Made by a program: the position numbers and the translations under genes. From NCBI RefSeq assembly GCF_003790525.1, contig NZ_CP033635.1: a DNA stretch of 64,000 nucleotides; one strand, 5' to 3'. Below are positions 11,214 through 14,329 of this stretch, in pieces. The DNA comes from Escherichia coli (lineage in GTDB: Bacteria > Pseudomonadota > Gammaproteobacteria > Enterobacterales > Enterobacteriaceae). Within the stretch, counting starts at the first letter, position 1. Each line of letters begins with the position of its first letter. Under the pieces are notes generated by a model. It was not told the origin of the DNA, ran no database searches, and worked only from the letters and a program-made list of their open reading frames with translations.

Positions 11214-11669
11214 TTATTCAACACCTGAATCCCCCGCCGCTTCTCTCCCCTTTATAAAACGCCCCTTCCGGAATCCAGACCGCTGCAGTGCACGACGAAG
11301 ATGACCGTATACCGTCTTGTCATTCTGCCCCGTCTCTTCTGTAATCTCCGCAATACTTAAACCTCTGTAATACCGGTTCAGTACCGCTCTGCGCTCTTCC
11401 AGCGTCAACACACCTCCGGCCGCTCTCAGATTCAGCATCGACTTATTCAGAATACAGCAGGCCTCTCCGGTAAAAAGAATACGAACAATATCTGTATACT
11501 CATCATCACAGAATACAAAATAATATCTGAATGACCTGCCTGACTGCACCCTTCTTCTGTCTGATATGGCATCTTCTATATATCTGATTCGACTGCTTAC
11601 GGTTCCAAATATCTCTCGCAGGGCTTTTTCAAAATAAATATCTCTCGTCGCCAGGATTATATCCAGCAT
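11214..11669 (-). CDS. small transcriptional regulator with C-terminal LuxR/sigma-70-region-4-like HTH
   Basis: 151-aa ORF; C-terminal LTLEERRAVLNRYYRGLSIAEITEETGQNDKTVYGHLRRALQ resembles a LuxR/sigma-r4 HTH; lies 62 bp downstream of the adhesin gene on the same strand. Confidence 0.45.
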   Translation of the reverse strand: MLDIILATRDIYFEKALREIFGTVSSRIRYIEDAISDRRRVQSGRSFRYYFVFCDDEYTDIVRILFTGEACCILNKSMLNLRAAGGVLTLEERRAVLNRYYRGLSIAEITEETGQNDKTVYGHLRRALQRSGFRKGRFIKGREAAGDSGVE

Positions 11670-11730
11670 CTCTGTACCTCATTATATCCCGGGGGACTCC
11701 CCCCGGGACAGATATCTAAATCCTGACCTG

Positions 11731-13272
11731 TCAGAACTCAAAATTCACACCAGCATTCCACGATGCGGATGACCCACCTGCAGCAACTGCAACTTTTCCT
11801 GCCACATTCTCTGTGAAACGGTAGCCCACGCCCACCGCAATGGCCTGCTCATCACGGTAACCACCAACGGCTGCTGTCGCGTTAAATTTTCCAACACTGT
11901 ATGGCTGGAAAAGACCTGCCAGTGCCGCGCTCTGGGCTGCACTCTCCCTTAACTCCTTCCGGTTCTCTTTAATCTGCTCCTGCATATTATTCATTCTCTC
12001 TGTCGCCATCTTCTGCCAGGCTTCCGTCAAATCCAGACGATGACTGTTATTCCTTATCGCTGCTGTATTTGAGGCTATTGCTGCATCCGTCTGCGCCCTG
12101 TTCTTCACAAGCACATCGCTGAGATGTTCTGCCTGGCTTTTCGCTTCTTTACGGGCATCCCGTACACTTTTATCTGTATAAGCCCGGGAAACCTGAACTG
12201 TTTCATCCGCTTTTTCTTTTATTTCATCCTGAAGAGCAAGAGAAGATGCATCCGTATACGCCACCGCTGCCGATGTGCCTGCAATAATATCCCTGCTGAG
12301 TTCATCACGTACTGCTGTAACCTGACTGTCAGTATGAGCACGGGCATCTCTGTATACACCGCCTATCTCACCGCGCAGACTGTCTCCCTCTGCCTTCAGT
12401 TCATCACGTACTGCTGTGACCTGACTGTCAGTATGAGCACGGGCATCTCTGTATACACCGCCTATCTCACCACGCAGACTGTCTCCCTGTGATTTCAACT
12501 CATCACGTACTTTGTTCGTCCCATCCTTTATCTCATCCTGAAGTGCAAGCGCTGTTACATCTGTATACGTCACCGCTGCCGATGTGCCTGCAATAATATC
12601 CCTGCTGAGTTCAGCATGAACTGTTGAAAGACGTTTATCTGTCTCGTCAATTCTTTCATTCGTCTGCAACAAAAAGACCTGTGCATCATCAAATCGTTCA
12701 TTCAGTTGCCCTACCGTCGCTGCATCTGTGTTATTGATACCATCAGACACATTTATAATCCGGCGGGTTTCCGGTGCTCCTTTGACACTCTCTCCATATC
12801 CCTCAGGCCCGGCACCAACAGATACCACGTTATTTTCTCCCGACACCTGTGAGCCATGGCCCAGAGCTACAGAGCCTGAAGAATTTTCTATTCCAGCCCA
12901 TCCCCCAATAGCAACACTCTGCTGTGAATTAAGTACCTCAGCGCTCTTACCTATGGCAACACCATATTTTGACTCAGCCTGACCGGCATCCCTTCCCAGG
13001 GTGACACTGTGTGGAGAATTATACACTCCCGAAAAAGAGCCAAACTGAAGACTTCCTGGTGAATCCATGTTAAAAGCGCCACCTCCCAAAAGGAAAGTGT
13101 TATTAGCTGTACCAGTTGAATTCGTAATAAAAGAGTTTTCTCCAATCAGTAAGCTGGAAGAATTAGCATCAACAGGCCCTGTCAAAACAGCCTGAGCCTG
13201 AGCCGAGAGCAGCAGGGCCACACTCACTGCCAGCGCGCTTTTCTTTAAAAAAGCATCACGTCTTTTAAGCAT
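11731..13272 (-). CDS. YadA-type trimeric autotransporter adhesin (Eib/Saa-like)
   Basis: Start placed at ATG 13270-13272 ([28 protein letters not shown] signal peptide, AGGAG 8 nt upstream on the minus strand); head-like G/S/N-rich repeats, coiled-coil stalk with repeated 33-aa units, C-terminal YadA-anchor ([20 protein letters not shown]...WNAGVNFEF). Confidence 0.8.
12240..12620. repeat. in-frame tandem and nested direct repeats inside the adhesin stalk (99-bp unit x2 at 12301-12399 and 12400-12498, flanked by a repeated ~60-bp block)
   Basis: Near-identical 99-bp units encode [33 protein letters not shown] twice; the block coding [15 protein letters not shown]...LALQDEIK recurs at about 12250 and 12556. 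Confidence 0.8.
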
Positions 13273-14329
13273 TCTGTTATTCTCCTGTATTATTACTTCA
13301 CCAGCCAGAACGGTAGTGCGGAGCAAAAATACAGTGATAAGAATCCTCTTTTATTAATTTAATAATGCCAGGAATATTATTGTGTATAATATGCGACCTC
13401 AATTTAAGCAGCAGAAAACGACTGGCATTAAAATCATTAAATTATAAACATATACAACTTTGTAAAGGTGGTTATAATAAACCTGATTACTTTAACGTCT
13501 GTATACCTGCACTGCTGATATCACAAAACAATAAAAATCCTGGTTAATATCTCTGATGATTGAATGAGAAATTCACGATGTCTGGTGAGAATTCTGTTCA
13601 AAACGAGGAATGCAGACGTACATGTGGCAGGCATGGACTTCTACCAATTTAACTTTTTTCCTTCCTTGTATTTACACATTGCACATTTTGCGCTACAAAA
13701 ATTTCACGTGGCACGCACCACGTGATCCGTAGAAAAGCCTCTTGTTACGAATTTCGTAAACCGCACGTCTGTCTGGTCGTGCGGATTTTTTATCCGTCAA
13801 CTTCACATGAAACCCGCCAGAGCACTGTTTCCGGATTCAGACATCAGGCATATTATCATCCACGATGTCGTGAACAAGATCACACTTTTGCAATTCCTTT
13901 ATTGATCGAAAGCAGTTAATCACGGAAATTAATTACCGGAGTGAAAGCATTACTGCATCGTAAATATCTACCATTTTTGACTACACCCTCTGACAGAATT
14001 TTCAGAGGGTTTTTTTATCAGTTTCACCATCCAACCCTGTACGCCAGAATGGTTTCACTGTCACTCAGTTCTGCTATTGCCTTTTTCATCTCCCTTTACC
14101 TTACGTTCTGCCAGAGTCTGAGCCATTTGAACAGGAGGTTATCATTGATATCGTGTTCCCGGGCAATACGGGCAACAGAGGCTCCTGGTTGCAAAGCCAG
14201 TTTAACCATTTGAAGTTTAACTCATTTGAAAATGATCTGCGGGGTTCTGCGGATAATGTTTTTGCTCCATAACAGGCGCCCACCAGTTTGAAAAGGTGGG
14301 CACCTACGTTACCAATACTGGCTTAATGG

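Follow-up and report, generated by a model that had tools for sequence, protein, structure and literature searches.

A YadA-type adhesin gene and its helix-turn-helix partner in an Escherichia coli island: a cassette of Eib-like layout and probable lambdoid-prophage origin

The Eib proteins of Escherichia coli are prophage-encoded trimeric autotransporter adhesins (TAAs) that bind immunoglobulin Fc in a non-immune manner. The GenBank records of the eibA, eibC, eibD and eibE loci of E. coli ECOR-9 prophages (AF151091, AF151674-6) present one layout, composed of orf-191, eib, a stem-loop, orf-156 and orf-60. This layout of a prophage adhesin cassette is already known and is functionally unexplored. 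We analyzed a stretch of 64,000 nucleotides of E. coli DNA (contig NZ_CP033635.1 of assembly GCF_003790525.1; hereafter, the window), which encodes a YadA-type adhesin of 513 amino acids (aa) and, downstream of it, a helix-turn-helix (HTH) protein of 151 aa. Both genes are present in the list of open reading frames (ORFs) as described by an initial annotation that was made from the sequence alone. Our results suggest that the two genes belong to a ~3.1-kb lysogenic-conversion ("moron") cassette that probably originated in a lambdoid prophage, has an Eib-like layout and was captured in an E. coli island rich in insertion sequences (IS). The adhesin is an uncharacterised further member of the group with this layout and its partner is, judging from profile comparison, a remote homologue of ORF-156 of the Eib prophages.

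Related TAAs have been described recently. Substitution of one Asp of EibG abolishes the binding of immunoglobulin G (IgG) Fc; ClaA and ClaB, which are EibG-like and lack these residues, do not bind IgG Fc; and "Yal" designates saddle-less EibG-like proteins of unknown function (preprint 10.64898/2025.12.25.695649). Neither the N-terminal domain of Eib nor the binding of IgG is present in these EibG-related TAAs (ClaA, ClaB and Yal). The same preprint does not discuss stalk repeats or a downstream HTH gene (10.64898/2025.12.25.695649). Our literature search found no study of this adhesin lineage or of ORF-156. A genome paper on islands of sequence type 58 (ST58) lists an "immunoglobulin-binding protein eibA", as an automatic annotation only, and the BEN2908 genome paper does not mention a YadA-like gene.

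Regulators associated with adhesins are also known in E. coli. MatA/EcpR and TosE/TosF repress motility, as has reportedly been seen for TosEF, and the shielding of short adhesins by capsule is established knowledge. AutA and AutR bind the promoter of the adjacent upaB and have global effects too, including effects on capsule and acid resistance, and capsule shielding of a short adhesin was also observed (PMC4844996).

Layout and prophage relatives of the cassette

The gene order of the locus is that of the Eib loci: orf-191 (reduced here to a remnant of 27 codons), the TAA gene, a stem-loop, the ORF-156 homologue and a small, candidate hydrophobic ORF. The initial annotation had considered the pairing of an adhesin with a regulator to be unusual. 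This is not borne out: the pair follows a conserved layout of Eib-type prophages, and AutA/AutR with UpaB had already documented adhesin-adjacent LuxR-type regulators in E. coli (PMC4844996). ORF-156-type genes follow Eib-type TAAs in phages P-EibA, P-EibD, P-EibE and GER2, and the same is true of further prophages and of a plasmid. No ORF-156 relative was found downstream of Saa, of an IncI-plasmid TAA, of an Enterobacter plasmid TAA or of eYadA.

The link between the 151-aa protein and ORF-156 was reached because the annotations of the Eib GenBank records were read and a profile comparison was made. Alignment with a 19-member ORF-156 profile using hhalign covered aa 2-134 of the 151-aa protein (probability 95.1%; E 3.1e-8), and BLASTP aligned it with ORF-156D from end to end (22% identity; E 2e-4). 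In PHROG, aa 3-75 weakly matched phrog_6585, a family of ~156 residues (E 3.3e-4). The residues common to the 151-aa protein and ORF-156 are T7, Y11, E13, D54, G67 and, in the recognition helix, K117-T-V. The two proteins are 22% identical, and Pfam recognises a Sigma70_r4_2 domain in the protein of the window whereas it finds none in ORF-156. General searches returned little else: a word-indexed search with the 151-aa protein retrieved only sequences at least 94% identical to it, mostly fragments; an exhaustive HMMER search of 1.84 billion representatives retrieved only its own cluster and fragments along with four weak matches limited to the HTH; and tblastn against phages gave nothing significant.

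The prophage origin of the cassette is indicated by its upstream edge and by its relatives. The orf-191 remnant is 89% identical (tblastn) to the C-terminus of the DUF4376 protein encoded ahead of this TAA module in a prophage locus (L024), and 56% identical (tblastn) to ORF-191D of phage P-EibD. The homology of the prophage copies to the window extends from ~14103 down to ~10995. Based on this remnant and this homology, we consider the island copy to be a captured prophage moron. In one genome the exact 151-aa protein is encoded four times; for two of these copies the setting is a lambdoid prophage, with tail-fibre/DUF4376 genes on one side and dinI on the other, as is classical for eib, and the same TAA 3' block is present there. 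The copy of the window differs from the Eib loci in lying in an island rather than in a prophage, while its sister copies occupy the same position in the lambdoid tail-fibre region. We observed a second recurrent context, a small chromosomal islet between a MliC/NanE/phosphotransferase system (PTS) cluster and a split transketolase/PTS-ascorbate cluster. The HTH gene and the 3' end of the TAA gene are each found in 183 of the 5426 complete E. coli genomes (3.4%), exclusively on chromosomes. They occupy 323 and 285 places, respectively, with up to 6-8 per genome. The exact 151-aa sequence is present in 5466 blocks of public assemblies. In some genomes, IS insertions lie inside the module (hits H13, H14, H17 and H20; loci L023 and L031).

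One plasmid that also carries a short Eib-type TAA and ORF-156 pair (NZ_CP023358.1; locus L014, 1-2050) contains a YadA-like gene of very large size, behind which lies an OmpA-family gene. This order resembles that of a TAA with a peptidoglycan-binding partner (TpgA-like), a different kind of companion.

Table 1. Positions in the window of the features of the cassette
Feature	Coordinates	Strand	Remarks
TAA gene	11731..13272	-	513 aa from the ATG at 13272, stop at 11731; AGGAGA Shine-Dalgarno sequence
HTH gene	11214..11669	-	151 aa, ATG at 11669
Head-domain cassette	12874..13188	-	~aa 29-133; hypervariable, exchanged between alleles in one piece
Tandem 99-bp (33-aa) stalk repeats	12299..12511	-	two full copies and 15 bp of a third
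Flanking direct repeat A	12524..12629	-	protein aa 221-249; partner of A'
Flanking direct repeat A'	12215..12320	-	protein aa 324-352; recombination between A and A' would delete 309 bp
AGCCTG 6-bp repeat	13189..13204	-	(Ala-Gln)n at the predicted signal-peptidase site; from Tandem Repeats Finder and the allele table
Intercistronic hairpin	11685..11710	-	11-bp G+C-rich stem, 4-nt loop, U-tract absent
Adhesin upstream region	13273..13984	-	non-coding, AT-rich (GC 0.33 at 13300-13599); presumed promoter/regulatory region
Hairpin in the adhesin upstream region	13704..13725		from the hairpin scan
G+C-rich hairpin	13985..14010		directly after the orf-191 remnant; terminator-like by scan, T-run on the + strand
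orf-191/DUF4376 remnant	14027..14107	-	last 27 codons; upstream edge of the conserved module
Candidate 25-aa ORF, MLNNVSYIVISVLLLLFFVVFVTNG	11147..11224	-	GTG start, single predicted transmembrane helix, overlaps the end of the HTH gene
Candidate 31-aa hydrophobic ORF, MKITKAAFIFALSVWSVAVICLLLFVLVVLG	11007..11102	-	from the ORF list

The adhesin, its head types and its stalk

The 513-aa protein is a TAA with a signal peptide, a beta-roll head, a neck, a helical stalk and a YadA-type anchor. The YadA-type identity proposed earlier was supported by Pfam, by a sequence search of the PDB and by NCBIfam. Pfam placed the YadA_anchor domain (PF03895) at aa 455-513 (E 3.5e-16) and a YadA_stalk/neck motif at aa 171-192. 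The PDB search matched the anchor to the YadA anchor structure 2lme (E 2e-17) and aa 131-201 to a head/neck fragment of SadA (2yo0). The NCBIfam model YadA_autotrans also matched the adhesin (E 1.8e-21), yet far under the curated cut-off for true YadA. By inspection, the N-terminus presents a Sec signal peptide with a basic n-region, a hydrophobic core and an AXA site followed by V. An AlphaFold2 model of the monomer, of low confidence (predicted local distance difference test score, pLDDT, of 54), is composed of a signal-peptide helix, strands at aa 40-152 corresponding to the beta-roll head, a neck, an almost unbroken helical stalk at aa 184-453 and the anchor. The two genes lie on the same strand as each other, as the initial annotation had indicated; both are on the minus strand, however, and their spacing is 61 bp instead of 62 bp. 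The end coordinate of 13330 that it had given for the region is accounted for by a TTG-extended ORF of the adhesin, which reaches 13326.

Comparison of alleles points to wholesale replacement of the head, and not the stalk repeats, as the chief form of diversity of the adhesin, which the initial annotation had overlooked. The head-domain cassette gives zero blastn match between loci that are 98-100% identical on either side of it. In an alignment of 87 sequences, column entropy is confined to aa 21-140, and aa 141-513 are almost invariant except for the number of repeats. Two head types are 46% identical to each other, and two further N-terminal types, one of which has a different signal peptide, are found on the same C-terminal 260 aa (96% identity). 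The 3' block, which comprises the stalk, the anchor, the hairpin, the HTH gene and the downstream 200 bp, is nearly invariant between loci. Judging from these sequences, at least four N-terminal types are carried by one nearly invariant block of stalk, anchor and regulator. Distinct sites of one genome can harbor distinct heads: the copies of TUM1886 lie at 91 kb and at 2.41 Mb, those of DG341-1 at 0.69 Mb and at 3.64 Mb.

A conjugative plasmid (NZ_OP290546.1, 20314-21146) carries the 5' third of the adhesin gene only (aa 1-168, 100% identical) along with the upstream region. This stretch is annotated as a "Tat pathway signal sequence protein", a misleading name for what is probably a truncated fragment.

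The stalk repeats described initially are present in the sequence. Tandem Repeats Finder detected a period of 99 bp with 2.2 copies, 93% matches and zero indels. The repeat search delimited two in-frame units (12299-12397 and 12398-12496) that are 95% identical, and these B units correspond to aa 255-287 and aa 288-320 of the adhesin. The nested repeated block that had been noted along with them was also recovered, as two direct repeats of 106 nt (A and A'), 86% identical and 309 nt apart, which bracket the tandem units. Repeats of such length and identity are far beyond chance. An ORF of 122 aa (12124-12492, + strand) lies antisense to the repeats and is most likely a by-product of the repeats and of base composition, not a gene.

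The proposed variation of stalk length does occur in nature: the 33-aa unit is present in 0-6 copies across alleles with several head types, and the comparison among related genomes shows that the number of repeats is not invariant. Among the best 120 homologues, adhesin lengths are stepped by 33 aa (480, 513, 546 aa and more) and B units number 0, 1, 2, 3 or 4; alleles with up to six copies were added from ten further loci. Many contigs were found for each of the lengths 480, 513 and 546 aa, and spans of 2502 bp as against 2601 bp occur in complete genomes. Both head types in the set of 120 homologues carry 1-4 B copies, and changes in copy number have therefore arisen repeatedly. A further class of alleles of 410 aa corresponds to 513 aa minus 103 aa, with one A block retained and the B unit absent. 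Their sequences fit exactly what recombination between A and A' would predict. In strain Ch1 the span is 2292 bp instead of 2601 bp. Finally, the 6-bp repeat that encodes (Ala-Gln)n at the predicted signal-peptidase site is present in 2 to 4 copies, depending on the allele, and the reading frame is always kept. Because all the repeat changes are in frame, this represents length variation and not on/off phase variation.

The initial annotation had suggested a comparison with Eib and Saa, among other adhesins. The similarity to Eib is limited to the C-terminal part and to the layout of the locus: EibD shares 40% identity with aa 299-513 of the adhesin (its C-terminal 215 aa), and EibA and its relatives reach ~57-62% over aa 396-488. 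In contrast, the head and N-terminal regions of Eib are unrelated to the adhesin. In a five-way alignment, the saddle between the right- and left-handed coiled coils of Eib has no counterpart in the adhesin, which presents unrelated helical sequence instead (the low-confidence monomer model is likewise helical there), and the IgG-Fc-binding segment (RID[Y/A] motif, then AVG) has no counterpart either. The Asp involved in IgG Fc binding (EibG D391) was placed in this motif by sequence context, as the EibE numbering of the preprint differed from our own count. Several members of the adhesin cluster carry the older NCBI name "immunoglobulin-binding protein". This label is probably wrong for the lineage, because the Fc-binding segment lacks a counterpart and because ClaA and ClaB, which are without these residues, do not bind. 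The adhesin is likewise without a predicted saddle, as are the Yal proteins according to their description.

Other named adhesins were rejected as close relatives. Saa, the autoagglutinating adhesin of Shiga-toxigenic E. coli encoded on plasmid pO113, is only 25.5% identical over aa 124-488. Both are TAAs of ~500 aa, but Saa is plasmid-borne and there is no ORF-156-like gene downstream of saa. Saa alleles reportedly differ in the number of in-frame 37-aa stalk repeats, and the two adhesins would thus share the same kind of stalk length variation. We also rejected eYadA of strain TW-XM of avian pathogenic E. coli (APEC; Vet Res 2026), which is a protein of 338 aa encoded at a different locus, in the cueR-ybbJ region, with no ORF-156-like gene there.

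The helix-turn-helix protein, flanking signals and genomic setting

Judging from Pfam and from a structure model, the downstream gene is intact and its product is an HTH protein of the sigma-r4/LuxR-like type. This cytoplasmic protein is composed of a truncated receiver-like alpha/beta domain (aa 2-74) followed by a sigma-r4/LuxR-type HTH (aa 87-130). The only Pfam match is Sigma70_r4_2 at aa 87-130 (E 4e-7); zero matches to sigma region 2 or to Response_reg were obtained in the 151-aa protein. NCBIfam sigma models match only aa 80-130, far under their cut-offs. The annotation of a 100%-identical chromosome (chicken E. coli strain CS5L) names the product "sigma factor-like helix-turn-helix DNA-binding protein" and the adhesin "YadA-like family protein". 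We rejected the identity of an ECF or other sigma-70-family sigma factor, since region 2 was not found and the N-terminal domain is alpha/beta and not helical.

The best structural matches to the model of the 151-aa protein are response regulators of the NarL/FixJ family (RcsB, NarL and EvgA). The 151-aa protein shares with them the order of domains (an alpha/beta receiver-like domain, then the HTH) and the C-terminal LuxR/sigma-r4-type HTH. It differs by an N-terminal domain of only four strands (~75 aa) that lacks the beta-5/Lys region, and by TR(D/N) in place of the acidic pair after beta-1; only D54, the Asp at the end of beta-3, is invariant. No histidine kinase is annotated near the HTH gene in the identical record. 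From this model, the protein looks like a miniature NarL/FixJ-type (RcsB-like) regulator with a truncated pseudo-receiver. The presence of invariant positions in both domains across the diverse ORF-156 family argues for a real and constrained protein.

Two described systems offer an analogy: AutA/AutR, associated with UpaB of APEC, and TosE/TosF, associated with TosA of uropathogenic E. coli, are likewise small kinase-less LuxR/GerE-type HTH proteins encoded beside a horizontally acquired adhesin gene. However, the exhaustive HMMER search revealed no detectable sequence relationship between these regulators and the 151-aa protein. Relative to the Aut and Tos systems, the HTH gene studied here lies downstream of the adhesin gene, on the same strand and behind a hairpin.

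The 61-bp spacer between the two genes is predicted to fold into a stable RNA structure (-37.5 kcal/mol; z -3.45; 0/200 shuffles as stable). The hairpin that it contains is followed on the 3' side by a GAGG Shine-Dalgarno sequence (11677-11680) and by the start codon of the HTH gene, and a weaker second hairpin (11715-11742) spans the stop codon of the TAA gene. The terminator scan gave no terminator call for the intercistronic hairpin. A stem_loop is annotated at the equivalent position between the TAA gene and orf-156 in the Eib GenBank records, and in P-EibD a T-run lies 3' of the eibD/orf-156D stem-loop. Upstream of the TAA gene, ~830 bp of DNA are free of genes and contain two hairpins. 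No gene is annotated in the adhesin upstream region in the identical record, and this region is 90-98% identical in other loci, prophage copies included. No Rfam family was detected at the gathering threshold across 10800-14300. At the other end of the module, both short hydrophobic ORFs lie within the block that is conserved in every context (down to ~10995), and the family search gave no match for either of them. ORF-60D overlaps the stop of orf-156 and has a hydrophobic tail; the 25-aa ORF occupies the same position and is possibly a positional analogue of orf-60.

In the window, an IS256-family (IS1414) transposase gene and an IS1 flank the module, and a short piece left over from a transketolase gene lies upstream. 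Beside copies of the module, transketolase is encoded by a split tktA/B-like pair, accompanied by a PTS-ascorbate transporter. We considered and rejected the tkt1 island of APEC O1; it contains a single-chain transketolase between metE and ysgA and no adhesin is listed for it. In the annotation of CS5L, the pair lies inside an IS-riddled island rich in pseudogenes, whose edges are formed by a CP4-type integrase and toxin-antitoxin genes. The surrounding island (window ~1-64000) is a strongly decayed mosaic with a PerC-family regulator, ProQ/FinO fragments, a PhoX phosphatase, a VENN fragment of contact-dependent inhibition and remnants of IS1, IS3, IS5, IS21, IS66 and IS256. It also contains the CP4-type integrase, YeeU/CbtA and ParDE toxin-antitoxin pairs and antirestriction/RadC genes.

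Competing explanations and significance

If the cassette functions as we propose, the adhesin would trimerise and present its head at the surface of the cell. The length of the stalk would be set by unequal homologous recombination or by slippage during replication, acting on the 99-bp units as well as on A and A', and its reach would change by ~5 nm with each 33-aa unit. Because 33 residues represent ~9 helical turns (3.67 residues per turn), changes by whole units would keep the phase of the coiled coil. Stalk length would tune the reach of the head beyond the O-antigen or the capsule, and head swapping would alter binding specificity and antigenicity. Transcription of the HTH gene would depend on read-through of the intercistronic hairpin and would be lower, and the product of the gene would bind DNA as a kinase-independent RcsB/NarL-like regulator. 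Its target may, tentatively, be the long AT-rich upstream region of the cassette itself. By analogy with other adhesin-linked LuxR-type regulators of E. coli, host genes such as motility or surface-structure genes are also conceivable targets, though slightly less likely ones.

Several of our observations weigh against such a functional coupling, or leave it with less support than the conservation of the locus might suggest, and part of them would be expected if the HTH gene were a co-travelling moron gene with no regulatory tie to the adhesin, that is, a phage factor serving phage or unrelated host functions. Between loci, the HTH gene shows just 1-3 substitutions and the flanking non-coding DNA is equally conserved (98-99.6%), so that the near-identity of the regulator says nothing on selection, and the co-occurrence of the two genes in 183 of 183 genomes may reflect physical linkage in a young module, which alone would be sufficient to explain it. 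The association of TAAs with ORF-156 is also not absolute, because a divergent ORF-156 subfamily (P0172; 164 aa, ~55% identical to ORF-156D, found in 391 blocks) occurs on its own, with hpaBC ahead of it and PerC-like genes in the vicinity (loci L015-L018, gene at 4001-4495), with ~1.1 kb of gene-free DNA upstream and no TAA detectable within 4 kb. The T-run after the terminator-like stem-loop between eibD and orf-156D suggests that the two genes can be separate transcription units. Upstream of the TAA gene we found no operator-like motif, only short AT-rich inverted repeats of doubtful meaning, and the promoter scan of the coding strand detected no consensus sigma-70 site in front of either gene. 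In addition, the model of the adhesin monomer is too low in confidence for fold searching, and the roles given to the adhesin and the regulator are drawn from sequence, predicted structure and analogy. Against mere co-travelling, the order of TAA gene, hairpin and HTH gene has been retained in two lineages that show only 22% identity between their HTH proteins and have adhesins in common solely over the C-terminal 40%; this order also persists in prophage, plasmid and island contexts and with at least four head types, and other adhesin-adjacent LuxR-type regulators of E. coli control their neighbor (PMC4844996). We consider a co-travelling gene without regulatory tie to be possible but rather improbable.

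The two remaining explanations concern the adhesin and the state of the cassette. The "immunoglobulin-binding" names of cluster members, the similarity of the C-terminal 215 aa to EibD and the layout of the locus could all be taken to indicate a functional Eib that binds immunoglobulin Fc in a non-immune manner. This is very unlikely: the Fc-binding segment and the saddle have no counterpart in the adhesin, there is no similarity to the N-terminal or head regions of Eib, the PDB sequence search gave no EibD structure, and the EibG-like ClaA and ClaB that lack these residues do not bind IgG Fc (preprint 10.64898/2025.12.25.695649). It is also unlikely that the cassette of the window is a decaying and non-functional relic whose repeat differences are neutral length polymorphisms without adaptive role. 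Such decay would agree with an island full of frameshifted or truncated genes and IS elements, with the IS insertions inside the module of some genomes and with the missing promoter consensus, but intact ORFs are found for both genes in the window and in the majority of the 183 complete genomes, the exact regulator sequence recurs in thousands of assembly blocks and every observed repeat change keeps the reading frame. An Eib-like moron cassette of lambdoid-prophage origin, captured in the island, therefore remains our preferred explanation.

A more speculative extension, which we regard as unlikely although worth stating, is that the 151-aa protein may form, together with ORF-156, a family of HTH regulators with a truncated pseudo-receiver that is restricted to E. 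coli, has so far gone unrecognised and is carried on prophage adhesin morons. These regulators would couple adhesin expression to host programmes such as motility, capsule or biofilm. The up to six copies per genome, with an invariant signal peptide and 3' block and with differing heads, might then form a multigene system in which gene conversion shuffles heads and stalk lengths and in which heterotrimers with mixed heads may arise from co-expressed paralogues.

What is modestly new here is the homology of the partner to ORF-156 with its RcsB-like predicted fold, the prophage fossil at the edge of the module and the multi-copy population structure with swapped heads. Poultry-associated and human extraintestinal E. 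coli carry this adhesin family fairly commonly, often with several copies per genome, and the combination of a conserved stalk and anchor with swappable heads is relevant to the choice of vaccine antigens and to typing. The name of the adhesin should not imply immunoglobulin binding. The link to ORF-156 represents a first handle on a gene that has accompanied Eib-type adhesins since they were first sequenced, without an assigned function, and it offers the testable hypothesis that this gene encodes a kinase-independent RcsB-like regulator carried by a prophage moron.

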